28,433 bases of DNA from Candidatus Micrarchaeia archaeon (GCA_038870455.1 JAWCPB010000012.1:1-28433), one strand, 5' to 3'. Positions 8,627-26,279 are shown, numbered from the stretch's first letter. A program made the numbers and translations. Notes: generated by a model from the sequence alone, not told the origin.

Positions 8627-9092
8627 AAACAACCGCCACCTCATCGCATTCGGCGAACTTGGGGCAGCGTATGCAGTCGCTCCATATCTTCATGGGCAGC
8701 GTGTTCCTCTCGACTCTGCGGAAGCCCAGCCTCTCGAAAAAGCCGGGGATGAGCGTGAGCGCGAACACGCGCTTGAGCCTCAGCCTCCGGGCCTCTTGAA
8801 GGCACGCCCTGACGAGCGCGCTGCCTATCCCTCGCCTCTGCCACCGCGGCGCGACCGCGAGCGATCGAATCTCCCCCAAGTCTTTCCAATAGATGTGCAG
8901 CGCGCAGCATCCGACAGGCTTTTCCCCCACGCGCGCGACATAAAAATCCCTTATGTGCTCGTACACTTCGCTGAGCGGGCGCGGGAGCAGCCTGGCCTTC
9001 TTCGTGTACATCTCGACGAGGCGCGAGATTTCCTCAGCGTCGTGAATACGCGCGCGGCCTATTTCCGTGTCCGCGTGCTTTGCCGCGCTCAT
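8616..9092 (-). CDS. argA: Short GNAT-type N-acetylglutamate synthase
   Basis: MSAAKH...LLPRPLSEVYEHIRDF...EIRSLAV...QRRGIG...LPMKIWSDCIRCPKFAECDE. ATGA overlap with the argD stop. Confidence 0.85.
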   Translation of the reverse strand: MSAAKHADTEIGRARIHDAEEISRLVEMYTKKARLLPRPLSEVYEHIRDFYVARVGEKPVGCCALHIYWKDLGEIRSLAVAPRWQRRGIGSALVRACLQEARRLRLKRVFALTLIPGFFERLGFRRVERNTLPMKIWSDCIRCPKFAECDEVAVVYEL

Positions 9093-10255: not shown

Positions 10256-11070
10256 GCAACCACCATCGTGCCCCCGCCCTTCAGCGCGTTCTCAACCGGC
10301 CTTGCCGTCCTTCCGTCCGCCAGCACTATCCTCCTCGCGCCCGCCTTCCAGGCATCGACGCATGCCTCCAGCTTGGCCACCATGCCCCCGTGCACTTTTT
10401 TCTCAGCCAGCAGCCTCTGTATTTCCCTCACGCTCATTTTTTTCACGACGCTTCTCTCATCCCCCTCGTCCGCCAGAAAACCAGGCACGTCGGTGAGCAG
10501 CACGAGCCAGTCGCACCGCAGCTGCGCCGCGAGCACCCCGGCCAGCTCGTCTCCATTTACGTTCAGGCACTCGTCCTCCTCCCCCTGCGCGATGCACGCG
10601 ACCACGGGGATGAACTTGTTTTTCAGCAGGAAATTGAACAGCTCCTTATTCACCTTTTTCGTCAAGCCCGTGAAGCCAATCCACTCTTTTTTCGTCTCGC
10701 CGCCCTCCTCCCACTCCGTGTACTCCTGCTTTCGCGCGACAATCGCGCTGCTCTCGTTTCCGTTCACCCCAATCGCTTTTCCGCCAAACTTTCCCACCAG
10801 GTAGCAAAGGTGTGCATTCACCCCGCCCGCGATGACGTTTCTCATGAGCTCCATTGTAGCCTTATCGGTCACCCTCCACGGCCTGGGCTTCCCCACCCAC
10901 CGCTGCTTTATCCCGAGCCTCTCCGCAACTCGGTTGACTTCCCTCCCCCCGCCATGCACGAAGATGAGCCGGTTCCTCTCCGCCAGCCTGACGACATCCC
11001 TCACAACACCGGCCACGGTCTCCTCGTTGTCCAGCAGGCTTCCGCCGATCTTCACAACTATCTTCATCAC
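10252..11070 (-). CDS. argB: Acetylglutamate kinase
   Basis: VKIGGS, VHGGG, RVTD, LNVNGDE, LLTDVPG, GGMVAKL. GTGA overlaps on both sides. Confidence 0.92.
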   Translation of the reverse strand: MMKIVVKIGGSLLDNEETVAGVVRDVVRLAERNRLIFVHGGGREVNRVAERLGIKQRWVGKPRPWRVTDKATMELMRNVIAGGVNAHLCYLVGKFGGKAIGVNGNESSAIVARKQEYTEWEEGGETKKEWIGFTGLTKKVNKELFNFLLKNKFIPVVACIAQGEEDECLNVNGDELAGVLAAQLRCDWLVLLTDVPGFLADEGDERSVVKKMSVREIQRLLAEKKVHGGMVAKLEACVDAWKAGARRIVLADGRTARPVENALKGGGTMVVA

Positions 11071-12242
11071 AGCCCCTCGTACGCCGCGTTTTCAGTGATG
11101 TAATCGTAAGTGAGGTCGCACGTCCAGACGAACCCCTTCGCCTTCCCAGCTTTGGCATCCACCTCAATCACAACCCCCTCTTCCTCCAGCCTTTCCCTCG
11201 CAGCATCCTCCCTGCCTGTGGAAACGCCGTTTCTCACCACCTTCACCCCGTTCATTGTTATATCCATTCTCTCACTCACCCTCGCCCCGCTCCTGCCCGC
11301 TGCCGCGGCTATCCTGCCCCAGTTCGCGTCCTCCCCGAAAACCGCCGTCTTAACGAGGTTCGAATTGGCAATCGCTTTCGCAATGCGCTGCGCCTCCTCC
11401 TCGTTCGCCGCGCCATTCACCCTCACCTCGATGAACTTGCTCGCTCCCTCGCCGTCATGCACGATCATCCTCGCCAGCTCCTGGCAGAGGGAGGTTAGTG
11501 TCTTCTCGAATTCCCTATAATCCCCGCCCACGCTGCTTATTTCCCTGTTTCCGGCCCGGCCGTTCGCCAGGATGATGACCGTATCGTTCGTGCTCATGTC
11601 TCCATCCACGCTTATCCTGTTGAAGCTCTGCCCCACAGCAGCGGCGAGCGCCTTCCTCAGCAGGCTTCCCTTTATGAGCGCATCGGTGGCTATGATGCAC
11701 ACCATCGTCGCCATGTTCGGGCATATCATGCCGGCTCCCTTGCAAATTGCGCCTATCCTGACCGCCCGGCCGCCCACCGCCACCTCCCGGTAGGCCGCCT
11801 TCATTCTCGTGTCGGTCGTCATGATGGCCCGCGCGGCGTGCTCCCACCGATTCGCCGGCCTTTTGACAAGCCTCCTTATCCCCTCGCGTATTTTCGCCAT
11901 GGGCAGCCTCTTGCCGATGATGCCCGTGCTCGCACACAGCACGAGCCTCTCGCTTATCCCCAGCTCGCTCGCGACCAGCGCACACATTTTTCTCGCGTCA
12001 GCAATTCCCTGCTTTCCATTGCACGCGTTTGCGTTCCCAGAGTTTATGAGGATGGCCTGCGCCATCCCCTTCCGCAGTTTTTCCTTATCCACTTTTATGT
12101 GCGCGCCCGTCACCTTGTTCGTCGTGAAGACGCCCGCGGCTCTCGCGGGCGAGTCGGAGAAAATCAGCGCGAGGTCCCTATTCCTGTATTTTATGCCGCA
12201 GTGCACGCCGGCCGCGCCGAAACCGCGGACTCTCGTTATCAC
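11067..12242 (-). CDS. argJ: Ornithine acetyltransferase / N-acetylglutamate synthase
   Basis: NSGNANA, STGIIG, IMTTDT, KGAGMICPNMATM (autocleavage Thr), DGDMSTND, DGEGA, WTCDLTYDYITENAAY. Confidence 0.96.
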   Translation of the reverse strand: MITRVRGFGAAGVHCGIKYRNRDLALIFSDSPARAAGVFTTNKVTGAHIKVDKEKLRKGMAQAILINSGNANACNGKQGIADARKMCALVASELGISERLVLCASTGIIGKRLPMAKIREGIRRLVKRPANRWEHAARAIMTTDTRMKAAYREVAVGGRAVRIGAICKGAGMICPNMATMVCIIATDALIKGSLLRKALAAAVGQSFNRISVDGDMSTNDTVIILANGRAGNREISSVGGDYREFEKTLTSLCQELARMIVHDGEGASKFIEVRVNGAANEEEAQRIAKAIANSNLVKTAVFGEDANWGRIAAAAGRSGARVSERMDITMNGVKVVRNGVSTGREDAARERLEEEGVVIEVDAKAGKAKGFVWTCDLTYDYITENAAYEGL

Positions 12243-12263
12243 GCCATGCTTTCATCGCTTCGC

Positions 12264-12270
12264 TTTAAAA
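12264..12270. promoter_or_regulatory. TATA box centred between divergent argJ and dapF
   Basis: TTTAAAA lies about 22 bp from both starts (12242 minus, 12293 plus). Confidence 0.6.
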
Positions 12271-12292
12271 CAATTCCGTGCATAATTTTCTC

Positions 12293-13099
12293 ATGCGGTT
12301 GAAATTCTCGAAGTGGCAGGGCACGGGCAACGACTTCATCATCATAGACGAGTGGGCGGGCGAGCTCGTCCCGGAGAAGGAAAAGAAGCCGCTTGCCGTG
12401 CGGCTGTGCGACCGGCACTTCGGCGTGGGCGCGGACGGCATCCTGTTCGTCTCCAAAAGCACGAAGGCGAGCGCGCGCATGCGCATCATAAACAACGATG
12501 GCAGCGAGGCGGAGATGTGCGGCAACGGGATCAGGTGCGTCGCCCTGTTCCTGAAGCAGAAGCGCTATGTGAAGAAAAGCAAATTCACGATCGAGACGCT
12601 CGCGGGCATCATGGAGCCCGAAATAAAAAACGGCCTCGTGCGCGTCAGGATGGCCACCCCGAGAGTGGAGGGCTTGGATGAAATGCTTTTCATCGAAGAC
12701 CAGATCATACGCTATGCTGCGGTCAACATGGGCAACCCGCACGCAGTCGTTTTCGTTGAGGACGTCTCCAACGCCCCGCTCCTGGCGCTCGGCCCAAAGA
12801 TAGAATCCCATCCGCGTTTTCCGAACCAGACCAACGTGCATTTCGTTCAAGTGCTTTCCCGCACGCAGGTTAAGGCCGTTCATTGGGAGAGGGGAGCGGG
12901 CGCGACGCTCGCGTGCGGCACAGGCGCGTGCGCGGTCGCCACGGCCGCCCACCTGAAAGGAAAAACCGATTCCGCTGTGGAGGTGCTCGTGCCCGGCGGC
13001 TCGCTGCACGTCGAGCTTGAGATGAAAAACGGCAAGCCGACGGCCTGCTTCCTGACCGGCCCTGCGCAGAATGTTTTTGAGGGAAAAGCAGAGATATGA
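12293..13099 (+). CDS. dapF: Diaminopimelate epimerase
   Basis: GTGNDF, GADG, MCGNGIRC, NMGNPH, ERGAGATLACGTGA; both catalytic Cys present. ATG 12293 preferred over GTG 12278. Confidence 0.96.
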   Translation: MRLKFSKWQGTGNDFIIIDEWAGELVPEKEKKPLAVRLCDRHFGVGADGILFVSKSTKASARMRIINNDGSEAEMCGNGIRCVALFLKQKRYVKKSKFTIETLAGIMEPEIKNGLVRVRMATPRVEGLDEMLFIEDQIIRYAAVNMGNPHAVVFVEDVSNAPLLALGPKIESHPRFPNQTNVHFVQVLSRTQVKAVHWERGAGATLACGTGACAVATAAHLKGKTDSAVEVLVPGGSLHVELEMKNGKPTACFLTGPAQNVFEGKAEI

Positions 13100-13100
13100 A

Positions 13101-14405
13101 TCAGAGACCCTTGGGCACTCTCTGGTTTAGCAGGAGCTCCTCGAACGCCTGCCGCTCTCTCACAAGAAATGCCTTCCCCCTCCTCACAAGCACTTCCGCG
13201 GGCAGCGGCCTCATGTTATAGTTGCTGGCCATGGCCATCCCGTACGCGCCCGCGCACAGGAAAGCTATGACATCGCCTTCTTTAACCACCGGAAGGTGCC
13301 GATCCCTCGCCAGCACATCGCCGCTTTCACAGATGTTCCCAACCACATCGGCTTTCTCAGCCTGCCCGCCCGCCACGTTGTTCGCAACCACAGCCTCGTG
13401 CCAGGCGCCGTACATCGCCGGCCTGGCCAGCACGTTGAAGCCGGCATCCACCGCGACGAATTTTTTTGCCGCACCCTCCTTTACTGTCTGCACGCGCGCC
13501 AGCAGCACGCCCGCGTTCCCAACGATGTACCTGCCGGGCTCTATTTTCACCTCAAGGTTTCCCAATCCAAGCCTTTTCGCTTCTTTTTTCACCATCGGCA
13601 TGACCGCTCCCGCAACCGTTTTTGGCTCCAATACCCTTTCTCCCCTCCTGTAGCGAATGCCGATGCCTCCCCCCAGATCAACAAACCGCAGGCGCACGCC
13701 GATATCCTTTAGCTCCCCGCACAGCCGCATCAGCTTGGCCGCGGCCTGCGCGAACGGCCGCGCCTCCAGAATCTGCGAGCCGATGTGCGTGTGAACTCCG
13801 ATGGGTTCTACGAAGTTCGCCGCAAGCGCTTTCTCGTAAGCCTCCACAACCCTGTCCATGGGTATTCCGAACTTGCTTTCTCTTCTGCCCGTCTGCCAGC
13901 CCGCGTGCGTCGCGGCAACAACATCCGGATTCACGCGGAAGCACACGAGCGCTTTCTTCCCCTCCTCGCCGGCAATCTCCTCAACCTGTTCCACTTCGCT
14001 CTCGGCATCCAGCGTGATGATGACGCCATTCTCTATCGCGAATTTTATCTCCTCCCTTGATTTCGTGTTTATCGTGAAAATCATCTTCCTGCCCTTGAAG
14101 CCAGCCCTCAGTGCAAGAAGCATCTCCCCGCCAGAAACACAGTCAACGCCCGCCCCTTCCCTTCTCAGCAGTTCGAGAAGGGCTAGGCTAGCATTGGCTT
14201 TCGCCGCGTAGTGCACGGTGACGTTTGGGTAGAATTTCCTGTACGCATCGCTGATTCTCCTGTAATTCTCAATCACTTTGTCCGCATTCATCACATACAG
14301 CGGCGTTCCGAATCTGTCCGCTAGCCTGCATGCGTCCGCCTCCCTAATGAACAGGCGGTTGCCCTTCACTTCGAGGTGCCCCTTTTCCTCCCACCATTGC
14401 GGCAT
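13101..14405 (-). CDS. lysA: Diaminopimelate decarboxylase
   Basis: YAAKAN, SKFG, HTHIGSQ, DLGGG, EPGRY, CESGD, MASNYN. Confidence 0.97.
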   Translation of the reverse strand: MPQWWEEKGHLEVKGNRLFIREADACRLADRFGTPLYVMNADKVIENYRRISDAYRKFYPNVTVHYAAKANASLALLELLRREGAGVDCVSGGEMLLALRAGFKGRKMIFTINTKSREEIKFAIENGVIITLDAESEVEQVEEIAGEEGKKALVCFRVNPDVVAATHAGWQTGRRESKFGIPMDRVVEAYEKALAANFVEPIGVHTHIGSQILEARPFAQAAAKLMRLCGELKDIGVRLRFVDLGGGIGIRYRRGERVLEPKTVAGAVMPMVKKEAKRLGLGNLEVKIEPGRYIVGNAGVLLARVQTVKEGAAKKFVAVDAGFNVLARPAMYGAWHEAVVANNVAGGQAEKADVVGNICESGDVLARDRHLPVVKEGDVIAFLCAGAYGMAMASNYNMRPLPAEVLVRRGKAFLVRERQAFEELLLNQRVPKGL

Positions 14406-15563
14406 CTAAATCACTCCCGCGAGCCTCTCAACGGCTTCCTTTATGCGCTCCCTCGGCTGCGTGAGCGCAAACCTCACATAGCCCTCGCCCGTTCCGCCGA
14501 AGCCGGCGCCTGGCGTCACCACGACGTTCGCCTGAAGCGCTTTTTTGGCGAACTCGACGCTGTTCCCGCCCGGCGCTCTCGTCCAGACGTAGAAGGTTGC
14601 GAGGGGAAGCCTTGTCTTGAGCCCGATTTTGTTGAGTCCTCTCACAAGAATTTTTCTCCTTCGCGCGAATTCCCTCACCCTCTTCTCCACTTCCTTTGGC
14701 CTCTGGCTTCCCGCATAGCTGTCGAGCGCCTCGGCAGCCATTTTCTGCACGTAAACGGGCGGGCCCGAGTCTATCTGCGATTTTATTCTCCGCAGCCCTT
14801 CGATGAGCTCGGCGTTTCCGACCGCGAACCCTATCCTGTCGCCCGTGACGCAGAACGTTTTCGACAGCGAGTGGAACTCGATGACGTTGCGCGTGAATTC
14901 GAGCATGCTGGGCGCGCGGTAGTCATCAAACGTCAGCTCGCAGTACGCGTTGTCGTAGCAGAGTATCGTTCTCGTTTCTTCACAGTAGTCGACGACTCCT
15001 TCGAGCGTGTCGCGTGCTGCAACCGCGCCCGTGGGGTTGTTGGGGTAGTTGAGGTAGAGCAGGCGCGCGCCCGTGGGCGTGAAGTGCTCCACCCTGGCCT
15101 GGAAATCGTTTTCCTCTAGTAGCGGGAACGCCACGGGCTTGCCGTCGCTCAGCAGCGCCGCGCCCTGGCCATACACTGGATAGGCCGGTTCGGGCACGAG
15201 CACGGCGTCGCCAGAATTCACGAACGCCCTTGCGAGATTGGCCAGCCCCTCCTTGCTGCCGATGAGCGCGATGACCTCCTTCTGCGGATCGACTTCCACC
15301 CCGAACCTCTTTTTCATCCACCGCGCGCACGCTTCTCGGAAAACCGGCTCCCCCTGCGACAGCGAATAGTTGTGATTCTTTGGATTTTTTGCCTCGCGGG
15401 CGAGCGCGCGCAGTATGAACTTGGGCGGGGGCAGATCAGGATCGCCTATCCCAAGGTTTATGATGTCCGCTCCCGCAGCCTTCTTCTCCGCAACCGCCTT
15501 CTCTATTTCCGCGAACAGGTAGGGCGGAAGCCGCCTCACCCTCTCGCTGTACTCAAACGCCAT
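14406..15563 (-). CDS. dapL: LL-diaminopimelate aminotransferase (class I PLP)
   Basis: LPPYLFAEI, LGIGDPD, GSKEG, NYPNNPTG, DNAY, IEFHSLSKT..TG.RIGF. Abuts lysA in a dap cluster with no dapD/dapE in view. Confidence 0.88.
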   Translation of the reverse strand: MAFEYSERVRRLPPYLFAEIEKAVAEKKAAGADIINLGIGDPDLPPPKFILRALAREAKNPKNHNYSLSQGEPVFREACARWMKKRFGVEVDPQKEVIALIGSKEGLANLARAFVNSGDAVLVPEPAYPVYGQGAALLSDGKPVAFPLLEENDFQARVEHFTPTGARLLYLNYPNNPTGAVAARDTLEGVVDYCEETRTILCYDNAYCELTFDDYRAPSMLEFTRNVIEFHSLSKTFCVTGDRIGFAVGNAELIEGLRRIKSQIDSGPPVYVQKMAAEALDSYAGSQRPKEVEKRVREFARRRKILVRGLNKIGLKTRLPLATFYVWTRAPGGNSVEFAKKALQANVVVTPGAGFGGTGEGYVRFALTQPRERIKEAVERLAGVI

Positions 15564-15583
15564 GCCCTCATTTCCTCCAAAGC

Positions 15584-15591
15584 TTTTTAAA
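15584..15591. promoter_or_regulatory. TATA box centred between divergent dapL and membrane-protein gene
   Basis: TTTTTAAA lies about 20-23 bp from both starts. Confidence 0.55.
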
Positions 15592-15613
15592 CAACTTTTC
15601 CTAAACCGTTGCC

Positions 15614-16450
15614 GTGCCCGATGTACTGCGCGCCATCATCGATGCCTTTGAGTTGTGGAAAAATAATTGGCAGAAATTCATCACTGCGTACATCATACTC
15701 TTCGTCATCGGCCTTGTTTTCGGCGTAATCGATTTCCTCATTGGCTTTTTTCAGAATGCGTTGTGCTCTTCGGAAGACCCGGCCGCGTTCCTCGCCTTGT
15801 GCGTTTTTCCCCAGCTTATTCCCTACGTCTTTGGCGCTCTCAAGGGCTTTCTGAGCCTCATCATCGCGCTCGCGGTCATCAGGCCTTTCTACGAGCTTTC
15901 CGAGAGAAAGCCGGTGAGCGACTGGGCGGGCCACTTTCTCCCGCAGCTTTCCAACGCCATTAAGATACTCATACTGCGTTTCGCCGTCTCCCTCGCGGCC
16001 TTCACCCCGATCGGCGTCGTGCTGGCCCTCAACCTCTCGGCGCTCCTCGCGCTGGCCGCAAGCGGGGCCAAAGGCCCCGCATTTCTCTCTGTTCTTCCAA
16101 CTGTTGCCCTCGTCTCCTTCATCGCATCTGCGCTCTTTGGCATTGTCTTCCTTTTCATTGCCAATTTCCTGCTGACTTTCCTGGAAATCGAGGTCGTCCT
16201 CTCGAGGCCGGACGTCATACGGGCCGCTGGGGCAAGCCTCGCGCTCGTAAAGCAAAATCTTCTCGATGTGTTCATCTTCGGCTTGGTCTGGGCAGGCGTT
16301 GGATTTGGCGTTGGCGTGCTCTCGCTTTTCCTCTGCGCCACGATTGTCCTCATTCCGGTTATCTTTCTCATTCAGTCCTTTGTCCTCGCCCCCGTCTATA
16401 CGCTCTCAAGCATTCTGCTCTGGAAGCAGCTGAGGCCGGGCGCGCCTTAG
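15614..16450 (+). CDS. Uncharacterised polytopic membrane protein
   Basis: 278 aa with about 5-6 hydrophobic segments. Fills the dapL-dapA gap and overlaps the dapA stop by 4 bp. Confidence 0.8.
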   Translation: MPDVLRAIIDAFELWKNNWQKFITAYIILFVIGLVFGVIDFLIGFFQNALCSSEDPAAFLALCVFPQLIPYVFGALKGFLSLIIALAVIRPFYELSERKPVSDWAGHFLPQLSNAIKILILRFAVSLAAFTPIGVVLALNLSALLALAASGAKGPAFLSVLPTVALVSFIASALFGIVFLFIANFLLTFLEIEVVLSRPDVIRAAGASLALVKQNLLDVFIFGLVWAGVGFGVGVLSLFLCATIVLIPVIFLIQSFVLAPVYTLSSILLWKQLRPGAP

Positions 16451-17343
16451 GAAACCAGCCCGTACTTCTTGAGCGTCTCGCGAATCCTTATCCTGTTGTC
16501 GTTTGTCGTCTCGCACAGCGGCAGCCTGAACCCCCCGCCAGGCAGGCCCATGATGTTCAGCGCCTCCTTGACGGGCACGGGGTTGGTGTCGATGAACAGC
16601 ACTTCGAACAGCTCCTTGAGCGCGCCGTGCTCCTGCGCCATGTCCTCAAACTTTCCTTCCAGCCCGTACCGCACGAACGCCTTCATTCGCTTGGGCGCGA
16701 TGTTGCTGGCCACGCTGATGACCCCGCGACCGCCGTACTCATGCATGAGAGTGTAAGTGTCGCCATCGTTGCCCGAAAGGATGAGGAAGTTTGGCCCGCA
16801 GGCTTCGCGGATGGCCTTCCACACTTCTGGCTTTCCGCTCGCTTCCTTGACGCCAATGATGTTGCTGTATTCCTTGGCCAGCCTGGCCATGGTCTGCGGG
16901 GCGATCTCCCTGCCTGACCTCGATGGTATGTTATACAGGATGTGCGGTATGTCCACGGCCTCTGCGACCGCCGCGAAGTGCCTGTAAAGCCCCTCTTGGC
17001 TGGGCCTGTTGTAATACGGGCAAACTTGGAGCGTGGCGTGCGCGCCAGCGTCTTTTGCGTGCTTGCTCATGGCGATGGCTTCCCAAGTGCAGTTGCTGCC
17101 CGTTCCTGCAATGACCTTCCCCTTGCAGCCTTCGATGGTCAGGTCGATGAGCCTGTTGTGCTCGGCGTGGCTCGTGGTGGGCGACTCGCCGGTCGTGCCG
17201 CACGGCACGATGCCGTCAACCCCGCCCTCGTTCTGGAACTCGACGAGCCTGCGGAAGCCCTGCCAATCCACCCTGGTCCTGGCACCAGTGCCCTTGTACG
17301 GGGTGACTATCGCGGTAAAGCACCCCTCAAACCCTCCAGCCAT
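16447..17343 (-). CDS. dapA: 4-hydroxy-tetrahydrodipicolinate synthase
   Basis: GTTGES, GTGSN, PYYN, LYNIPSR, GVKEAS, SGND, TNPVPVK. GAGGTGA RBS. Confidence 0.97.
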   Translation of the reverse strand: MAGGFEGCFTAIVTPYKGTGARTRVDWQGFRRLVEFQNEGGVDGIVPCGTTGESPTTSHAEHNRLIDLTIEGCKGKVIAGTGSNCTWEAIAMSKHAKDAGAHATLQVCPYYNRPSQEGLYRHFAAVAEAVDIPHILYNIPSRSGREIAPQTMARLAKEYSNIIGVKEASGKPEVWKAIREACGPNFLILSGNDGDTYTLMHEYGGRGVISVASNIAPKRMKAFVRYGLEGKFEDMAQEHGALKELFEVLFIDTNPVPVKEALNIMGLPGGGFRLPLCETTNDNRIRIRETLKKYGLVS

Positions 17344-17390
17344 ACTCTCACCTCGTGCAAAAAAGCACGCAGTTAGTATATTAACAAGCT

Positions 17391-17429
17391 AATTTAAATA
17401 CTTTTCGTATAAAAAATACGGAATTCGTA
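17391..17429 (-). promoter_or_regulatory. dapA promoter (BRE+TATA) with putative Lrp-family operator
   Basis: Minus strand CGAAAAG-TATTTAAAT; palindrome TACG-GAATT-CGTA at 17417-17429; CGTAT-A5-ATACG at 17406-17420. Confidence 0.65.
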
Positions 17430-17430
17430 A

Positions 17431-18234
17431 TTATTTAAGCCCCATCACGTCTTCCATGCTGAATATCTTTCCAGGTTTCCTGTTTTTCTGGAGCCACAGC
17501 GCGGCCTCGAGCGCCCCCCGGGCGAAGTCGCTGCGGTTGTACATCAGCGTGCCTATAGTGAGCCTGCCGTGCTGCCCGACCACCCTCACCTCGTGCTCGC
17601 CGGCAGTGCCGCCCAGCCTCAGCACGGCCATGTCAAGCTCGCCCTTCACCCTCTCGCGGAGGCCCTCCCCTCTGTAGACGATCTCTCTCGCGGCCCCCAC
17701 CCCAACGATTTCCCTCGCGAGTTTCTTCGCAGTCCCGCTGGGCGCATCTTTCTTCATGACGTGATGCTCTTCGATGATGCCATAGTCATAGCCGTAGGGC
17801 GCGAGTATTTTCGCAGCCTCTCTGGTCAAGTAGAATTGGGCATTCACCAGCGGGGAAAAATTGGGCGCGATCACCGCGCTGGCCCGGCTCCGCCTCACCC
17901 CCTCCTCGATTGCGCGCAGCTGCTCTTCAGCAAATCCCGTCGTGCCGATGACGAGGTCGATGCCTTTTGCCGCGATGCGTGGTGCATAGGCGGCATCTGC
18001 ATTCGGCGCGCTGAATGACACAACGCAATCCACCCCCACCTTCAGCGCTTCCTCCAGCCCCTCGCTGCTCAGTATGATAACGTCGGTTCCCGGTACGCTT
18101 TTTCCCAGCTCGGGCGCGTTGGGCCTCTCGAGCGCGCTGACGATTTTGATTCTGTCGCTGTAGCTCGCCAGCGCCTCGGCTGCCACCGCCCTGCCCATGT
18201 GGCCTCCCGCGCCGAAAACGCATATTCTGAGCAT
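17431..18234 (-). CDS. dapB: 4-hydroxy-tetrahydrodipicolinate reductase
   Basis: GAGGHMG, VIGTTG, APNFS, EEHHVMKKDAPSGTA, GEHEV. Confidence 0.95.
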   Translation of the reverse strand: MLRICVFGAGGHMGRAVAAEALASYSDRIKIVSALERPNAPELGKSVPGTDVIILSSEGLEEALKVGVDCVVSFSAPNADAAYAPRIAAKGIDLVIGTTGFAEEQLRAIEEGVRRSRASAVIAPNFSPLVNAQFYLTREAAKILAPYGYDYGIIEEHHVMKKDAPSGTAKKLAREIVGVGAAREIVYRGEGLRERVKGELDMAVLRLGGTAGEHEVRVVGQHGRLTIGTLMYNRSDFARGALEAALWLQKNRKPGKIFSMEDVMGLK

Positions 18235-19417: not shown

Positions 19418-21265
19418 CTACATTCTCTCAGGTGCCTCTATTCCCAGCAGCCCCAGCCCGATCGCGAGGACATTCTTGGCCGCCTTGACGAGCGCCAGCC
19501 TCGCCGCCCTCTCGCCCGCCTCCGCCTTGAGCACAGGAGCGGCGTTGTAGAACTTGCTGAAAGCATCCGCCAGCTCAAGCAGGTAATCGCAGATATAATG
19601 CGGCCTGTAATCGCCCGCTGCCCTCGCCGCCTCGAGCGGGAACTTTGCCAGCAGCCGCAGCACGCGCTTTTCCTCGGAAAGCTTCAGCGTCTTGGCATCG
19701 GGCTCCCCTGCTTCCCCACCCGCCTTCTCGAGTATCCTGGCCGCCCGCGCGTGCATGTACTGGATGTACGGCGCGGCGTCTCCCTCGAAGCTCAGCGCCT
19801 CTTCCCATGAGAAGACAAGCTTTTTCTCTGGCGAGAGGCGGACGAACCCGAACTTCACCGCGCCTATCCCCACCGCCCTCGCAATCTCCTCTTTTTCCTG
19901 CTCGCCCATGTCCTTGAACTTCTCCCTCACTTCCTTCCTCGCCCTCTTCACAGCCTCCTCTATAATCTCGTCCGCGGTGTAACCGACCCATGTGCCGGCC
20001 CTCCCGGAAAACCTTTCTTCGGGCAGGGTCGCGTGCTCGTAAGCCAGATGCACCGAGTTCCCTGCCTGTTCGGCGAAGCCTGCAAGCCGCAGCACCGCGG
20101 CGATGACTTTCTGGGGGTAAATCTGCTCCGCTCCGATAACATTCACAACAACATCCGCCTTTCCGAACTCTTTTCTCTCCCCCTCGCCCGCGGTGGTATA
20201 GAGGACCTTGCCATTGGGCTGCTCCATGAATTTTTTGAACTTGAAGTCGGCCTCGAGCAGGCCGAACTTCCACATTTGGAAGGCCGCGTCCTTTCCCGTA
20301 TAGGTCGCCGTGCCGTCCGCCCTCACAAGCACCTTGTCAGGCGACTCCATGCCCGCGAACTCGGGCAGCCTCTCCAGCTTTGCAACAATGCAGCCCGCGT
20401 TTTTTCCTCCCTCTTCCTTCACAGCCGCCCCGCTCTCGAGCATCTTCTCCAGCCCCCTCTCGAACAGCCCGCTCCGGAGTATGTCGCTCTCCCACACGAG
20501 CACATCGTGGTATATCCCGAGGTTGAATGCCGTCTGGCGCTGTGCGGCAACGCACTTCTCGCACAGGCTCCGGGCCTCGCGCGCAATCTCATTCCCCCCC
20601 TCCTCCATGCTCTTGACTATCTCGCGGACAGCTTTTTCCACTCTCGGCTCCTCGCCGAACCTCTTGGCCGCCTCGACGTACTCGGCGCCGAGCCAGTGGT
20701 CAGCCTTTCCCACGATGTTGCGGTTTATCTTGAGGTAGCCCCACACGCTCTGGGCCACCTGCAACCCCAGGTCGTCGATGTAATCCTGTCTCTCCACGGC
20801 ATGGCCGGCGAATGCGAGCAGCCGGGCCACGCAGTCACCGAGCAGCGCGTTCCGAAGGTGCCCAGCGTGCCAGGGCTTGTTGGGATTCACGCTCGGCCAC
20901 TCCACCAGCACCTTCTTGCCTGTCGGCTTTCCCTTCCCGTAATCTTTCTCGCCCGCCTCGTGCAGCACGGCCTCCCAGACTTTTGCGGACAGGAAGAAGT
21001 TGATGTAAGGCCCCTTGCACTCTGCCCTTTCTACGAACTCGTTGGGTGGAATCTTTGCGAGAACGGCCTTCGCAACCTCAACGGGGTTCTTTCCTTCTCT
21101 CTCGGCTATGTCGAACGCAATCGTGCTCGCCAGGTCGCCGAAAGGCTCCTTCGCTTCCTGAACGCTTGCCAGCGCTTCCCTCTCGTAGCCCTCCCAGCCC
21201 GCGCTCGCGCACCCCTCGGCCACCAGCCTGCCGACAGCCTGCTGCGCAGCCTCCAGAGCCCACAT
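19418..21265 (-). CDS. argS: Arginine--tRNA ligase
   Basis: FGDLAS, GPYINF, SVNPNKPWHAGHLRN (HIGH variant), RADGTATY, FSGRAG, PYIQYMHAR, C-terminal ERM. Confidence 0.97.
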   Translation of the reverse strand: MWALEAAQQAVGRLVAEGCASAGWEGYEREALASVQEAKEPFGDLASTIAFDIAEREGKNPVEVAKAVLAKIPPNEFVERAECKGPYINFFLSAKVWEAVLHEAGEKDYGKGKPTGKKVLVEWPSVNPNKPWHAGHLRNALLGDCVARLLAFAGHAVERQDYIDDLGLQVAQSVWGYLKINRNIVGKADHWLGAEYVEAAKRFGEEPRVEKAVREIVKSMEEGGNEIAREARSLCEKCVAAQRQTAFNLGIYHDVLVWESDILRSGLFERGLEKMLESGAAVKEEGGKNAGCIVAKLERLPEFAGMESPDKVLVRADGTATYTGKDAAFQMWKFGLLEADFKFKKFMEQPNGKVLYTTAGEGERKEFGKADVVVNVIGAEQIYPQKVIAAVLRLAGFAEQAGNSVHLAYEHATLPEERFSGRAGTWVGYTADEIIEEAVKRARKEVREKFKDMGEQEKEEIARAVGIGAVKFGFVRLSPEKKLVFSWEEALSFEGDAAPYIQYMHARAARILEKAGGEAGEPDAKTLKLSEEKRVLRLLAKFPLEAARAAGDYRPHYICDYLLELADAFSKFYNAAPVLKAEAGERAARLALVKAAKNVLAIGLGLLGIEAPERM

Positions 21266-21323
21266 GAAATGCTATTAACTATTATCATCTTAAATTACTG
21301 CGTACGGGGCTGTGTGCTAACCT

Positions 21324-21510
21324 GGTAACCCTTTTGCCTTCGGCAAAAGCGTTAACGGAAAAGGGCCAGAGTGCTTCCGGGTTCGGGTAACCCTTTTCTT
21401 TCCCGAAAGAAAAGCGTAACGGAAAAGAAAGGGCGTTTGGAAAAACCCGGCGATCCGAGCGACCCTTTTGCCGGCGCTCCGGCAAAAGCGTCAACGGAAA
21501 AAACGTTGAC
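21324..21510. repeat. Three tandem degenerate hairpin + mirror-repeat units (potential intrastrand triplex elements)
   Basis: Consensus ACC-CTTTT[stem]loop[stem]AAAAG-CGT(Y)AACG-GAAAA, with hairpins starting at 21331, 21393 and 21465. Stems differ in sequence but are perfectly paired. Confidence 0.88.
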
Positions 21511-21575
21511 ATGGTCCGGAACTTCAAATCTCGGCAGCCCCACGTTTTTTATACCAGAAAAGCGTATGCAATGGT

Positions 21576-22823
21576 GTGGGAGTAAACAAAACCATCAGGC
21601 GAGAGGGGGTGCGGCCGGAGCTTCCGACGCACGGGGCTCGGCCCCTCGTGGACAAGCTTCCCCTTGAGAAAATCATAGAGGCTTTCCGGGCTCACGGCGG
21701 AAAGCGCGGCATCAAGCTTATTCGAAAAGCCTATGCCTTTGCCAAAGAGAAACATCGAGACGAATGGCGCGAGGACGGCTCACCCTTCATTTCCCATCCG
21801 GAGTTCGTGGCTTTGCGCGTGGCCGAAATCGGCGGCTCTGCTGAGCAGGTGAGCGCGGCCCTGCTGCACGACATCATGGAAAATCAGGGTGTGGGGTTCG
21901 GCGAGCTGAGAAGGAAGTTCGGAGAAAAAGTAGCCCGCATCGTGGTGCAGCTCAGCAAGCCAAAGTACACCGGCCAAGGGTGGATTTTTGCAAGCCACCC
22001 CCGCTATTCCCGCGTGGAGAACAAAGCCGCCTACAAGGAAAGAAGCGATGTGTATTACGCCTCGCTGCTCAAATCCGATGCATTCGAGGCCATCCCGGTT
22101 AAGATATTTGACAGCCTGCACAACCTGCTCACCATGCAGAGCGTGCCCCAGAGGGAGAGGAAGAGAAGGCTCGACGTGTTCGAGGAGCACATAGCCTGGC
22201 TGACGCAGAGGCTCGACCCCAGCACCTATAATCTCATTGCTGAACAGTTCAGGGCTCTCGGCCGTGACGTGCCTTCGGTGAGCACCGTTCCTGAGGTAAA
22301 GGGAAATCCCATCACAGAGCTGCCGCCGAGGGCGTGGCTGACTGAGCAGGATCTCGCAAAGCTTCCCCTCCCATCTATCGGCATAAGCGTGTACGCCGAG
22401 CTCAACCACCTGCTGGTCACCGACCGGCTGGAAATCGGGTTGCCCAACCCGAGGCTGCTGGCCGGCAAAACTTTCCTGGAGGAGCTGCGCGCTTTTTTTC
22501 CCGATAAGGAGATAACGGAGGGAAAGAGCCTGCTGCCCCCCGGCATGGCTGCCTCGGAACAGATTTATGTGGTCAAGGGCTTCCGCCCTCCGGAGGCAGG
22601 CGCCCTCATATCGCTCCGTGAGGCGATTGCGGAAATTCGCGATAGCTCGGGCGATGAGCCCGCTTGCATTCCCATTAACCGCATTCACCGCTACATTCTT
22701 GTTGAGCCGCTCAGCGAATACCGCCAGAAGACGCTTGAGTCTTATAAGGATTTTGTCCGCAGGCTGATGGTTTTCTTCGACGAGCACGTGCGCCCGCACA
22801 CAGATCCACAAGCACATTTTTAA
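21576..22823 (+). CDS. RelA/SpoT-type HD hydrolase domain fused to unknown C-terminal domain
   Basis: AYAFAKEKH...R.DGSPFISHP..VA...AALLHDIMEN...FGEKVARIV..LSK...VKIFDSLHNL. No synthetase domain. TTTTTTATA at 21545-21553. Confidence 0.85.
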   Translation: MGVNKTIRREGVRPELPTHGARPLVDKLPLEKIIEAFRAHGGKRGIKLIRKAYAFAKEKHRDEWREDGSPFISHPEFVALRVAEIGGSAEQVSAALLHDIMENQGVGFGELRRKFGEKVARIVVQLSKPKYTGQGWIFASHPRYSRVENKAAYKERSDVYYASLLKSDAFEAIPVKIFDSLHNLLTMQSVPQRERKRRLDVFEEHIAWLTQRLDPSTYNLIAEQFRALGRDVPSVSTVPEVKGNPITELPPRAWLTEQDLAKLPLPSIGISVYAELNHLLVTDRLEIGLPNPRLLAGKTFLEELRAFFPDKEITEGKSLLPPGMAASEQIYVVKGFRPPEAGALISLREAIAEIRDSSGDEPACIPINRIHRYILVEPLSEYRQKTLESYKDFVRRLMVFFDEHVRPHTDPQAHF

Positions 22824-22848: not shown

Positions 22849-22935
22849 GCGGGGGTGTCAGAGCCTGGTCAAATGAGTAGGCCTCAGGAGCCTATGCCTT
22901 TAGTGGCTGCGAGGGTTCAAATCCCTTCCCCCGCA
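22849..22935 (+). tRNA. tRNA-Leu (anticodon CAG), no encoded CCA, no intron
   Basis: Acceptor GCGGGGG/CCCCCGC+A; anticodon arm TAGGC-CTCAGGA-GCCTA; long variable arm GCC-TTTAGT-GGC; T arm GAGGG-TTCAAAT-CCCTT. Confidence 0.97.
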
Positions 22936-23960
22936 CTGGTCTCGAAAGGATCCGCCAAAGACGAGTAGGGCCGCCCAAACAGATCCATAAAGTATCGCTC
23001 AAGACGCGCTATGCTTATCAGACAATGGCGGAGATTTTCGGTGGCAAACGCATAGCTGGCCAGCGTCGGCCCGTATTCTTCATCGTATTTTAGTCCCCTC
23101 TTTTTGGCTTCTGACTCTGCATTGAGGTAGTCTTCGAGGAGGTGCTGCAGCTCATGCTGAAACGCAGCTCGCGAAGAAAAGAATAACTTGGATTCCCCTT
23201 GCACATAAAAACCTTTGAGAGGAGACTCAGCGCCTACATGCTTGAATTCATAGAGATGCAGGTCAAAGCCAGGAATATCCTGAATGTCTATGCACGCTTT
23301 TTTCTTCAGCCTCAGCAATGTCCTGTATCCCTTATAGTTGTAGATGTAAAGGCCTTGCTTCTCCAGAGCTCGATTCAACGTGTCCAGCGCATCCTGCGGC
23401 TTGCGCGATTTCACGGCTTTGAGGGCGCTTTCTTTCACAAGGTCAGGCCAATCCACCATTTCAATTGCCTTCTCCGCCACCTCTTGGAAAACTTTTTCTT
23501 CAAAAGATGCGCAGAGCTTGCTGCAGGCTTTCAGCAGCTCTTTATCTGGTTTTTTCAAGACCTCCATCTCCAACGGCTTTTCTCTTTTCGCGGCAAGCGA
23601 CAGCGCCAGGTAAGCCGCGTGCGGCATTTTGCGTGAGAGGAGGAACTCGAAGTATGCTGATGGCTCATCCGCCCTGATGCTCACTTCAACGAGCAGCTTC
23701 AGTATTTTCGCATTATACTCCACAACCTCCCGGCCGCAAACATCCAAAAAAGGATTGTCCTTCACCTTCTTCTGGAATGCCTCCTCAAACATCCGTGTCA
23801 ATTTCTCCCTTTCCTCCCCCTTCACTCCCTCTAGAGACCGATAGGTCTCTTGCACGATTTTGTCGACCGCTTCAGTTTTCACGATGCCCTCGACTAGCGG
23901 GACCGGTGGTCTCATTTTTACGTCGGCCTGTTCGCACGCCCGCTTAAACGCCAATCTCAT
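22917..23960 (-). CDS. Hypothetical protein with HExxH (possible zincin-like metallopeptidase) motif
   Basis: GGAGGTGA RBS before ATG 23960; AFQHELQHLLE followed by DEEY. Stop codon lies antisense inside the tRNA T-loop. Confidence 0.7.
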   Translation of the reverse strand: MRLAFKRACEQADVKMRPPVPLVEGIVKTEAVDKIVQETYRSLEGVKGEEREKLTRMFEEAFQKKVKDNPFLDVCGREVVEYNAKILKLLVEVSIRADEPSAYFEFLLSRKMPHAAYLALSLAAKREKPLEMEVLKKPDKELLKACSKLCASFEEKVFQEVAEKAIEMVDWPDLVKESALKAVKSRKPQDALDTLNRALEKQGLYIYNYKGYRTLLRLKKKACIDIQDIPGFDLHLYEFKHVGAESPLKGFYVQGESKLFFSSRAAFQHELQHLLEDYLNAESEAKKRGLKYDEEYGPTLASYAFATENLRHCLISIARLERYFMDLFGRPYSSLADPFETSAGEGI

Positions 23961-23984
23961 TGATATCACCTCCGTGTCGCGCGC

Positions 23985-26279
23985 TTATTCCCTGAGCCAT
24001 GCCAGCTCCCTGATTATTATCTCCCTCTGCCTGATGTGAATCTCGTCGAGCATCGCGGTGATGCGCTCGGCTTCGAGGTACGCCTTCACCCTCTCCTTTT
24101 GTTTCTCAAAGCCTTCCCCCAGCCTCTGCCTGAGGTTTTTCTCGAGCTCGTTTTCCCCCATGAATTTTGGCGGGTTTTCGCCGAAGCGCGTGGTTATGCC
24201 GTTGAGTTCCCTCTGTGCCGAGCATGCGACGAGGAACAGGTCGCTGGCGGGGTTCCTCACTTCCCTCTCAGAATCGAAAATCTCGTCAGCGTGCTCGGAC
24301 ACGTAGTCTGCCAGCAGCGCGTACGCGCTCTTTTCTTCGGCCTCCGGCCGGTGCCTGCTGTTCTCCTCGACTTTCAGCGCCGCGATAACAACGTCGAACT
24401 TCTTGCCGACCGTCGCCTCCTTGATTCCCCCGCTTTTTTTGAACTCGTGCGCGAACTCTACGGGGGCGAGCTCCACTTCAATCGGCTCCCCTGCGCCGTT
24501 CATCCACAGCGAGACGATGCGCCTGCCTCCTACGCTCAGCCTCTCCGAGTACTCGAATACGACCCTGGAGTCGCGCGCTCCCTTCCTGAGGAGGCCATCC
24601 GCGTTTCTGATGTCGTACACCGCGTCGAAAATGTTTTCTGGCACATACCCTATGCTGTCCGCGGCCTCGTTGAGCGCATGGGCGACGCTGTCGCCCGCGT
24701 TGGCGGGTATCTCCTCGCACAGCGCGTATATCCTCTTGTTGTGCTCGAGCAGCCGGCCGTGCAGCTTCCTCACATACTCCTCGTATTCCGTGAGCGGCTT
24801 GCCGAACACGCTGTAGTTCGCGCCTCTTTTTTTCATCGCGTGTATCATCCTCAGTATGACCTCGGCCGTCTTCTCAGGCGTGAGGTATGCCTCGGGTGGA
24901 TAGAGCCAATCGCCGAGCTTGTACCTCACGTGCGACTTTATCTCCAGGTACGCCCTCAGGATAATCTCCCCCTCGACGGGCGCTGCGAGCGCGAGGTCCC
25001 TGATGCTCTCGAGCAGCCTTTTCTCATTTTCCACTCTCTCGGTTTTTTTGGCGTCGAGAATCTTCTTCTGCTCGCTCTCTATAACCGCCGCCTCGGGCAG
25101 CGCCTGTATGCTCTTGAGGTGCCCAATGTACTTCCTGATATTTCTGCGCTGGCTCCGGTCCAGCTCCCTCTTGAACGCGCCGAGAAAGCTCTCCCACAGC
25201 TCCGCCTCTTTCGGCGAGGTGGCCGTGAAGTCGAAGAACAGGCCACTAAGTGAGTATAACACGCACTCGTATCCCTCCGGTTTTTTCTTGCAGCACAGGC
25301 TGCTGAAGTTTTTGATGAACTCCAGGAGGTCGGATCTCAGGCGCGCGAGCTCGCACAGGAGAACGAACTTTATTTCCGGGCAGTCTTTGTTGAGGATTGT
25401 CTTGAGCATCCTGCTTTTCTTTTCTATGCTGTCGATGATTTCTCCCAGTACGGACAGCCTTCCGTGAAGCTCGCGGACGTCCTCCTCGTTTCCCCCGGTT
25501 TCTTCCCTGAGCATGAACGCGTTGATGAGCTCCAGAAACCTCTCGTACAGGCTGTACTCGAGGCTCCCCCTGAGAAGGTTTTTCTTCTCAACTTCCAGGT
25601 ATCCTTCCACGAACCGGCTGAGCTTCGCCCGCTTTTCTCCATCGAGCCTCTTCGTCAGGGCATCCGCCTCGTCCTTCGTCACCGGCCACTTGCGCTCGGC
25701 GAACAGCAGAACCCTATCAACGAACTTGGCGTGGTCTATCCGCCTGTCCTCCGGCGCCGCGTTCTTCACCCAGTACCCCACCTCCCTGAGCAGCCTCGCG
25801 ACCTCCTCGTCAGGAGCTTTCCTGAGGCCGGCCGCGAACTTGAACAGCTCGCTGGCGGTCTCGTCTTTTTCGCCGAGCACATCAACCAGCTCCACGATAA
25901 CCTCTGACCCAAGCTCTTCCGCGGCCTTCCTTATCTGCTTCAGCGCCTCCCCTGCAGCGGCTCCGGCCGGCTTTCTTGCGTTCAGCGCGCCGTCCACCAG
26001 CCTCCTTTTCTTTTCTGCGATTGAAGCGGTGTCCTTCACGCCGTACATCACCACGCCCTTGTCGCGCCTGAGCCTCGCCAGGTCATCAACGAGCGGGGAA
26101 AACACCTTCTTCAATTCTCTCGGGGTGAACTCGATTTTCCATGACACGCTGGCTTCTTTGGCAAACCATCCGGCGTGCAGTCCGCGGGCTATGGCCCTAA
26201 CCGCAGTGAGCCTGTTGGCCTGCTCGATGGCGGCGTTCTTTCTTGCCTCCTGCTCGAGAAGTTGAATGGGCTTTTCCAT
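23985..26279 (-). CDS. Large soluble, charged, probably alpha-helical hypothetical protein (764 aa)
   Basis: Long E/K/R/L-rich ORF; TTTATTTAAG about 25 bp upstream; no motif recognised. Confidence 0.8.
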   Translation of the reverse strand: MEKPIQLLEQEARKNAAIEQANRLTAVRAIARGLHAGWFAKEASVSWKIEFTPRELKKVFSPLVDDLARLRRDKGVVMYGVKDTASIAEKKRRLVDGALNARKPAGAAAGEALKQIRKAAEELGSEVIVELVDVLGEKDETASELFKFAAGLRKAPDEEVARLLREVGYWVKNAAPEDRRIDHAKFVDRVLLFAERKWPVTKDEADALTKRLDGEKRAKLSRFVEGYLEVEKKNLLRGSLEYSLYERFLELINAFMLREETGGNEEDVRELHGRLSVLGEIIDSIEKKSRMLKTILNKDCPEIKFVLLCELARLRSDLLEFIKNFSSLCCKKKPEGYECVLYSLSGLFFDFTATSPKEAELWESFLGAFKRELDRSQRRNIRKYIGHLKSIQALPEAAVIESEQKKILDAKKTERVENEKRLLESIRDLALAAPVEGEIILRAYLEIKSHVRYKLGDWLYPPEAYLTPEKTAEVILRMIHAMKKRGANYSVFGKPLTEYEEYVRKLHGRLLEHNKRIYALCEEIPANAGDSVAHALNEAADSIGYVPENIFDAVYDIRNADGLLRKGARDSRVVFEYSERLSVGGRRIVSLWMNGAGEPIEVELAPVEFAHEFKKSGGIKEATVGKKFDVVIAALKVEENSRHRPEAEEKSAYALLADYVSEHADEIFDSEREVRNPASDLFLVACSAQRELNGITTRFGENPPKFMGENELEKNLRQRLGEGFEKQKERVKAYLEAERITAMLDEIHIRQREIIIRELAWLRE

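Follow-up and report, generated by a model that had tools for sequence, protein, structure and literature searches.

A covarying hairpin array in a micrarchaeal genome as the probable interior of a three-intron tRNA-Pro(CGG) gene

The closest described systems to the locus treated here are the disrupted tRNA genes of the archaeal Richmond Mine acidophilic nanoorganisms (ARMAN). According to the accessible text of the main report, archaeal tRNA genes have three introns at most, tRNA genes of ARMAN-2 are heavily disrupted and may contain as many as three introns each, a tRNA-Pro of the group carries introns at positions 53/54 and 59/60, and the epsilon2 splicing endonuclease of ARMAN-2 cuts strict as well as relaxed bulge-helix-bulge (BHB) motifs (Fujishima et al. 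2011, PMC3239211). Our subject is a contig of a Candidatus Micrarchaeia archaeon (GCA_038870455.1, JAWCPB010000012.1), the 28,433 nucleotides of which are called the window. Between argS and a gene for an HD domain protein, it carries three hairpin units, U1 to U3, which a preliminary description had read as an array of fold-back triplexes. We conclude that these units are very probably the interior of an unannotated tRNA-Pro(CGG) gene with three introns (21306-21542, plus strand). The locus is an ordinary kind of gene, newly recognised. Its introns belong to a widespread, apparently mobile family with an unexplained conserved core.

The locus resembles the multi-intron tRNA genes of the Micrarchaeota ARMAN-1 and ARMAN-2 in phylum, in its varied intron positions, in the number of up to three introns, in the use of position 53/54 in a tRNA-Pro and in the combination of strict and relaxed BHB motifs. 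It differs in that all three introns of one gene share a module, whereas the accessible text of PMC3239211 mentions no shared intron core. Other reports, as far as their accessible text goes, link the L3-loop endonuclease of DPANN archaea and Hadesarchaea to increased tRNA disruption and take incomplete tRNA sets of DPANN genomes to point to disrupted genes that have escaped identification (PMC5829648); an Asgard preprint presents many hidden introns and gives no general route by which they arrive (10.64898/2026.10.13.758758). Searches of the open-access literature, subscription journals being outside the scope, found no description of a conserved intron core in tRNA or rRNA introns of DPANN or other archaea, a negative that is provisional, and a search of papers for a 10-nt string of the linker returned only primers.

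The probable interrupted tRNA-Pro(CGG) gene

The first clue came from matches to the units in other genomes, where the family proved to be wedged in tRNA sequence, after the GG of the D-loop, after the anticodon or inside the T-loop, in the last case with the remainder of the tRNA behind the unit. Since the module was seen inside recognisable tRNA sequence elsewhere, the window was re-read and four exon stretches were joined. When 21329-21372, 21388-21444 and 21460-21522 were removed in silico, ARAGORN called a tRNA-Pro(cgg), and the call was unchanged with the BHB-based border of intron 1 (21328-21371). In the spliced cloverleaf, the acceptor stem has 7 bp and the anticodon and T stems have 5 bp each, the T-loop is TTCAAAT, and U33, G37 and A73 are present; joining the flanking exons thus yields a complete cloverleaf tRNA, as is expected when introns are taken out. 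In the unspliced DNA, ARAGORN finds no tRNA at 21306-21542. The comparison of the units with Rfam that the preliminary description had proposed gave nothing for them: at gathering thresholds, the tRNA-Leu gene described below, matched at 22849-22935, was the only hit in the window, and at E <= 10 a search of 21250-21600 returned only a 13.9-bit chance match. The parts of the probable gene are as follows.

21306-21542, + strand: whole tRNA-Pro(CGG) gene, four exons (73 nt in total) and three introns, ending at discriminator A73 (ARAGORN after splicing)
21306-21327, + strand: exon 1, with 5' acceptor strand, U8, G9, 5' D-stem strand and D-loop with GG (ARAGORN cloverleaf; 3' border from the BHB rule)
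21328-21371, + strand: intron 1, 44 nt, in the D-arm at about 21/22, holding U1 (strict BHB; match to covariance model R1 at 21324-21367, 51.2 bits)
21372-21387, + strand: exon 2, with 3' D-stem strand, position 26, 5' anticodon-stem strand CCGGG, loop positions 32-37, anticodon CGG at 21384-21386 and G37 (ARAGORN cloverleaf)
21388-21444, + strand: intron 2, 57 nt, at the canonical position 37/38, holding U2 (borders unique given the mature anticodon loop; R1 match at 21386-21431, 47.7 bits)
21445-21459, + strand: exon 3, with A38, 3' anticodon-stem strand CCCGG, 4-nt variable loop and 5' T-stem strand CCGAG (ARAGORN cloverleaf)
21460-21522, + strand: intron 3, 63 nt, at position 53/54, holding U3 (strict BHB; R1 match at 21458-21506, 52.4 bits)
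21523-21542, + strand: exon 4, with T-loop TTCAAAT, 3' T-stem strand, 3' acceptor strand and A73 (ARAGORN cloverleaf)

The substrate of the archaeal splicing endonuclease is a 4-bp helix with a 3-nt bulge on either side, and the enzyme cleaves each bulge after its second base. All (x,y) pairs in the window were scored for this arrangement. To count as a strict BHB, an (x,y) pair needed all four central base pairs, 3-nt bulges, 4 bp or more in the inner helix and 1 bp or more in the outer one; on the plus strand, 424 of the 2,970,765 pairs qualify (1.4 in 10,000). At the three introns the following motifs are present.

21328-21371, + strand: intron 1, central CTGG (21322-25)/CCAG (21366-69), bulges TA|A and AG|T, 7-bp inner helix CCCTTTT/AAAAGGG; strict
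21388-21444, + strand: intron 2, three of four central pairs, bulges GG|T and AA|A, inner run of 2, outer helix of 5 bp, which is the anticodon stem; relaxed
21460-21522, + strand: intron 3, central TCCG/CGGA, bulges AG|C and AC|T, inner helix GACC/GGTC; strict and exactly at the borders defined by the tRNA

The bulges, the 4-bp helix and the predicted cut sites at exon-intron borders that characterise archaeal tRNA introns are thus found, in strict form in introns 1 and 3. The BHB of intron 3 coincides with the unconstrained minimum-energy fold (-35.0 kcal/mol), and for introns 1 and 2 the BHB fold is at most about 3 kcal/mol above the local energy minimum. For intron 1, the strict motif and the border with the best D-stem are 1 nt apart; the alternative 3' exon border at 21328 places A22 instead of U22, an uncertainty of +/-1 nt.

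In the mechanism that we propose, an AT-rich promoter of the gene's own, situated between argS and the HD gene, would drive transcription, which would end at a run of six T. Each intron of the precursor would pair with adjoining exon bases to form a BHB motif, the splicing endonuclease would cut two bases into each 3-nt bulge, and a ligase would join the four exons to a tRNA of 73 nt. The hairpins U1 to U3 would then be structured intron cores, and the enclosing pairings noted in the preliminary description would be the BHB helices.

Several observations weigh against this interpretation. With the BHB-based border of intron 1, the D-stem consists of two Watson-Crick pairs and two U-U oppositions, while the alternative border provides three Watson-Crick pairs but no BHB. 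The motif of intron 2 is relaxed, with three of four central pairs and an inner run of two. ARAGORN is lenient: on a locus of the family discussed below (L046) it accepted 14,019 of 162,624 excision variants, with inconsistent isotypes. Pfam scans of the window found no splicing endonuclease or ligase gene. Finally, the covarying lower stem of the module competes with the inner helix of the BHB in all three introns, which our explanation leaves unaccounted for.

Structure of the units and of the intron core

Reading the plus strand from 21100 to 21750 bore out the existence and position of the three units (21328-21503) and the statement that their stems differ in sequence yet remain perfectly paired: the hairpins have 8 bp with a 3-nt loop in U1, 10 bp with a 2-nt loop in U2 and 10 bp with a 4-nt loop in U3. 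Every unit has ACCCTTTT, then a perfect hairpin, the 3' arm of which ends in AAAAG, and after it a linker of 7-8 nt (CGTTAACG in U1, CGTAACG in U2 and CGTCAACG in U3) and GGAAAA. The core pattern AAAGCGT(N)AACGGAAAA has three matches in the 28,433 bases as against 0.00 expected from 100 shuffles; for ACCCTTTT there are four matches in the window, three of them in the units, where 0.71 would be expected. An inverted-repeat search returned repeats longer than the stems first noted (13-16 nt, 88-93% complementarity, one C opposite C), and the unit region folds more stably than shuffles, with z = -2.76 on the plus and -3.32 on the minus strand. The earlier view of the units as selected, structured and covarying has stood, although the whole feature (21306-21542) exceeds the span then given. 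The alternative and enclosing pairings were likewise all found again (CTGG/CCAG with CCCTTTT/AAAAGGG, CCGGGTT/AACCCGG and GTCAACG/CGTTGAC); they are, however, most probably helices of BHB splice sites and the anticodon stem. Two further options of the preliminary description hold in a sense, the stand-alone non-coding RNA because the array is probably the interior of a tRNA gene, and the small mobile repeat because the intron core is a multi-copy family at many host sites.

Other candidates were considered and rejected. A CRISPR (clustered regularly interspaced short palindromic repeats) array does not fit, as the three units differ in their stems and tandem arrays elsewhere repeat the "spacer" too. 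For a replication origin, a terminator array, a C/D or H/ACA RNA and a small ribozyme, the defining boxes are absent here, and Rfam has no match.

The family was sampled by one genome scan with the unit pattern. At least 121 loci were listed, mostly from archaeal metagenome-assembled genomes (MAGs), and all family counts given here are lower bounds; the source genome and its close relative are not among the matches listed. Much of the core was fixed by the search pattern, so that pattern matches alone give no measure of conservation at those positions. Among the matches listed, 92 archaeal loci from DPANN and other lineages contain a module of about 45 nt. It forms a hairpin with a covarying lower stem of 4 bp, a C opposite C, a C-G pair with U4/A4 and a variable top, and is continued by ACGGAAAA.

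In an alignment of 96 distinct copies, three from the window and 93 from the loci, this hairpin is paired in 89.3% of the cells compared with 81.4% in shuffles, and none of 500 shuffles reaches the observed value. Pair 4-52, the lone pair of the lower stem that the search pattern had left free, is A-U in 67 copies, G-C in 27 and G-U in one, and is unpaired in none (n = 95). In divergent copies, all four lower-stem pairs change with compensation, further Watson-Crick pair types are added and the C opposite C is kept. The haplotypes of the lower stem are TAAC/GTTA, TGAC/GTCA, CAGC/GCTG, GAAC/GTTC, AAAC/GTTT, AGAC/GTCT, GCAC/GTGC, CAAC/GTTG, TAAG/CTTA and AAGC/GCTT. When mutated, the 8-nt linker remains self-complementary around a free central dinucleotide (CGT..ACG, CGC..GCG and CCT..AGG; three haplotypes in 8 sequences). 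Self-pairing of the linker and formation of the covarying lower stem are mutually exclusive. The covariance model R1 recognises only three copies in the window (52.4, 51.2 and 47.7 bits, next match 12.9). Of the 92 archaeal loci, which as its own training sequences match by construction, 91 score 39.7 bits or more; the 24 bacterial loci searched do not exceed 28.8 bits (three further bacterial loci were left out). About 27 extra copies were detected in locus flanks, outside the training set.

The location of the units between two divergently transcribed genes and the near-palindromic 8-mer in the linker would also suit a protein-binding array, in which the units are operator-like sites for a regulator of the argS and HD promoters. 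Unlike double-stranded DNA operators, however, the stems vary while keeping their pairing, the flanks of the palindrome stand in mirror and not in inverted order, and the module lies inside tRNA and rRNA genes of many genomes with unrelated neighbours. We consider such an array extremely improbable.

The alignment also bears on the model of the preliminary description, according to which each unit folds back into an intrastrand triplex, with a purine motif on the plus strand or a pyrimidine.purine-pyrimidine arrangement on the minus strand, and acts as a DNA element or antisense RNA. Intrastrand-triplex repeats are described in bacteria as PIT (potential intrastrand triplex), BoxC and TMECO (Holder et al. 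2015, PMC4666352). Judged by the accessible text of that report, our units share with PIT/TMECO the order pyrimidine-loop-purine-loop-purine and the nature of a short multi-copy repeat, with U2 alone conforming to the stem criteria. TMECO is G/C-rich, intergenic and bacterial and has 9-nt homopurine stems with a second loop of 3 nt, whereas the units of the window have mostly mixed tracts and a second loop of 7-8 nt, lie inside an RNA gene and belong to a family in which a minority of copies follow the mirror rule. Pyrimidine, purine and purine tracts of at least 6-7 nt with G.G-C/A.A-T triads and at most one mismatch are found in U2 alone and not across the array. The length of the second loop in all units is beyond the 1-6 nt of ITxF, although it falls within the 0-10 nt of an older search.

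The claim that the third tract mirrors the purine arm holds exactly for U2 (10 of 10), nearly for U1 (7 of 8) and poorly for U3 (5 of 10, the conserved GAAAA alone). The perfect 10-nt mirror arrangement of U2 speaks for a triplex, as do the AAAAG ... GAAAA in mirror order within the conserved core and a mirror run of at least 4 nt beyond the conserved GAAAA in 12 of the 96 copies (shuffle mean 1.9). The lengths of the A-runs after the linker follow those of the T-run, with the triple (4,4,4) in 39 copies and (5,5,5) in 9, a tracking that is expected under either model. All 12 mirror copies, however, come from one polypurine subfamily, so that kinship can inflate the shuffle test, and in these copies an ordinary closing helix with one G-U pair and one bulge fits as well. 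The third tract was supposed to covary in further copies; apart from this subfamily it mostly does not, the mirror run being at most 1 nt in 73 of 96 copies, and the mirror is no feature of the alignment as a whole. The idea that the 5' arm forms a contiguous helix with the third tract throughout the family was rejected, with 62.6% of cells paired and 62.4% in shuffles. The stems of U1 and U3 are of mixed sequence, not homopurine/homopyrimidine, and the transcribed strand would need a purine-motif triplex, which the accessible text of PMC4666352 states not to form in RNA. The tRNA gene with its BHB motifs accounts for every enclosing pairing, each of them at a cloverleaf exon border, without any triplex. 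As an organising principle, the fold-back triplex has thus given way to splice-site helices, the DNA element is not supported, and we hold the triplex model to be very unlikely. A triplex is neither needed nor general, and a three-strand interaction may exist in the polypurine subfamily.

Occurrence and apparent mobility of the module

With introns allowed, ARAGORN called 49 tRNAs in the 92 loci, and 36 module copies lie inside these calls, 34 in sense and 2 in antisense orientation. In view of the leniency of the program towards excision variants, the isotypes of these calls are unreliable; for the same reason little weight is given to brute-force single excision followed by ARAGORN, which was run without a control and gave a tRNA in 27 of 94 blocks. 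A test for a T-loop signature was positive in 28 of 94 cases in sense orientation, compared with a control mean of 6.3 (maximum 12), and in 7 cases in antisense orientation, which is borderline against a control mean of 3.1 (maximum 7). This criterion is too stringent, since the T-loop of many host tRNAs is itself interrupted by a second intron. Of the antisense cases, the one in L046 was checked by hand and L073 looks like a second. In L046, at about 1890-2119, a single tRNA has a sense module in a D-loop intron, an antisense module that makes up the whole anticodon-loop intron and a third, sense module just after its 3' end. Five copies start no more than 2 nt from the 3' end of intact tRNA genes, i.e., in trailer position (L050, L108, L028, L060 and L046).

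The intron sites of the window recur elsewhere. Two loci of a Nanoarchaeota MAG (L090 and L093) hold tRNA-Pro genes in which position 53/54 is occupied by a module and the D-loop by a degenerate one, and an Aenigmatarchaeota MAG (L064) has a tRNA with the module at the D-loop site of intron 1. Intron sites are thus shared by different phyla. In 11 clusters, copies from different host sites agree in the variable hairpin top to within one mismatch, a few of these clusters representing tandem copies only; one 11-nt core is common to D-loop, anticodon-loop and T-loop introns, two of these in one genome.

Ribosomal RNA genes are hosts as well. Five copies, all in sense orientation, lie in two 16S genes from two genomes and in one 23S gene from one genome:

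L091, 133-182 and 294-349, sense: rRNA-internal module copies
L017, 270-319, sense: rRNA-internal module copy
L007, 66-115 and 211-267, sense: rRNA-internal module copies

The tRNA in the 16S-23S spacer of L017 contains the module as well.

In addition, two to four copies occur in tandem inside single introns, with a period of about 46-52 nt that includes the inter-unit bases:

L030, 1994-2192: tandem array
L064, 1995-2248: tandem array
L081, 295-493: tandem array
L018, 166-410: tandem array

Outside tRNA genes, one MAG has nine dispersed copies of a repeat of about 107 nt, with unrelated flanks:

L025, L026, L040, L055, L056, L069, L074, L101 and L110: dispersed copies of the ~107-nt repeat

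The repeat has the module at its start, then a TTTATATA box and a conserved end; L072 is a related version with two modules. Record titles name MAGs of Aenigmatarchaeota, Micrarchaeota, Woesearchaeota, Iainarchaeum, Nanoarchaeota, Burarchaeum, Thermoplasmata, Hadarchaeota, Methanosarcinales and Methanocellales, where labels outside DPANN may be binning errors. Phage and plasmid collections gave chance matches only (E-values 3-9).

The dispersed repeat, the tandem arrays and the two antisense copies inside tRNAs are also what a dead gene would lead one to expect, i.e., a formerly intact tRNA-Pro gene turned into a pseudogene by three insertions of a small mobile repeat, which are not removed from any transcript. 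The weak D-stem and the relaxed BHB of intron 2 fit this notion. Yet all 73 exon bases still give a full cloverleaf with the hallmarks of tRNA-Pro, two of the three insertions lie in strict BHB motifs at exon borders, which 1.4 in 10,000 pairs provide, and the likely T-run terminator and the AT-rich upstream region are retained. Furthermore, the module resides in 16S and 23S rRNA of other genomes, which cannot be dispensable. A pseudogene is therefore very unlikely, and the locus is very probably a gene with removable introns.

The intron family looks mobile, and the sequence comparisons point to a spread of the module by copy-and-paste; in our model the module would behave as a copy-and-paste element. 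The conserved linker of the three units would be explained if all three introns descend from a single widespread module, and the persistence of the module would be explained by its removal in splicing. Miniature inverted-repeat transposable elements and REP-like (repetitive extragenic palindromic) repeats are likewise short, structured and multi-copy, occur in either orientation and are sometimes dispersed between genes; unlike them, the module is strongly sense-biased in RNA genes (34 of 36 copies in tRNA calls, 5 of 5 in rRNA). In the Thermoproteales, related intron sequences reportedly lie at different positions of different tRNA genes. The present family is similar in that related introns occupy different tRNA sites, implying gain by copy-and-paste, but it is set apart by its span of several phyla, its occurrence also in 16S and 23S rRNA, tRNA 3' flanks and intergenic repeats, its tandem amplification and its defined covarying hairpin core. 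The accessible text of PMC3239211 cites the transposed intron families of Thermoproteales as evidence for non-canonical intron gain by transposition. Archaeal rRNA introns, as in the 16S genes of Thermoproteales (PMC4496867, accessible text), are also bounded by BHB motifs, and the module is found in rRNA genes of Aenigmatarchaeota and of one further archaeon. The rRNA introns with the module are short (about 50-60 nt), contain no reading frame and have a core in common with tRNA introns, and they are distinguished from the Thermoproteales introns by description only.

As a joint reading, we tentatively put forward a possibility to which we give less than even chances, namely that the module is the core of an undescribed pan-archaeal mobile mini-intron, with two mutually exclusive pairings that covary independently and serve as a switch or recognition site. 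In DPANN, Hadarchaeota and some MAGs labelled Euryarchaeota, such a core may insert copies of itself in genes for tRNA, 16S and 23S rRNA and in the flanks of these genes, and it may survive by supplying or tolerating a BHB. The lower stem beside the C opposite C and the self-complementary 8-mer of the linker may be the alternatives of a conformational switch or may form a protein-recognition site. One possibility for a protein that recognises the core is a splicing endonuclease of the L3-loop type, the distribution of which, as reported in the accessible text of PMC5829648, resembles that of the module. The core could be a recognition site that couples folding, splicing and spread.

Genomic setting and significance for archaeal tRNA introns

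The tRNA-Pro(CGG) locus is flanked by argS (19418-21265, minus strand) and the HD_4-domain gene (21576-22823, plus strand), and a tRNA-Leu(CAG) gene detected by Rfam and ARAGORN lies at 22849-22936. Two putative signals, read from the sequence, frame it:

21272-21297, no strand assigned: AT-rich region, putative divergent promoter
21545-21553, + strand: run of six T two bases after the discriminator, likely archaeal terminator

On the plus strand, TATTAA/TATTAT elements resembling a TATA box lie about 23-29 nt upstream of tRNA position 1, and on the minus strand TTTAAG is found about 28 nt upstream of the argS ATG (21265). The T-run overlaps the TATA-like TTTTTTATA, about 26 nt before the GTG at 21576 of the HD gene. 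Terminator and promoter assignments rest on general archaeal oligo-T termination and TATA spacing. The overlap suggests a leaderless HD mRNA and a shared terminator/promoter element. In agreement with the preliminary description, the units lie in neither of the flanking mRNA leaders.

The arginyl-tRNA synthetase encoded by argS is 87% identical to a protein of "Candidatus Micrarchaeia", and the other named matches are nearly all from Micrarchaeota. The host is thus a member of the Micrarchaeota, a phylum with highly interrupted tRNAs, in which a three-intron tRNA gene is an expected kind of object. Elsewhere in the window, two adjacent argininosuccinate-synthase-like frames on the minus strand (1035-2576 and 2309-3580) overlap as listed; the true start of the first probably comes after the one listed. 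Both frames belong to a cluster for arginine/lysine biosynthesis, with ArgJ, an amino-acid kinase, a class-III aminotransferase, an ornithine/diaminopimelate decarboxylase, DapA and DapB at 9089-18234. Two long frames on the minus strand, 22917-23969 (350 aa) and 23985-26279 (764 aa), have no Pfam match.

For archaeal genome annotation, the locus is a worked example of a hidden disrupted gene, a codon-reading tRNA that standard finders do not see, and the covariance model of the intron core is a handle for finding further disrupted tRNA genes. It also advises caution, in that an archaeal intergenic array of covarying "three-strand" hairpins should be tested first as a split RNA gene. How archaeal tRNA introns arrive is an open question on which this intron family bears. 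Since its core recurs, both in tandem and dispersed, at various sites in various RNA genes, the family is a concrete candidate for studying intron gain.

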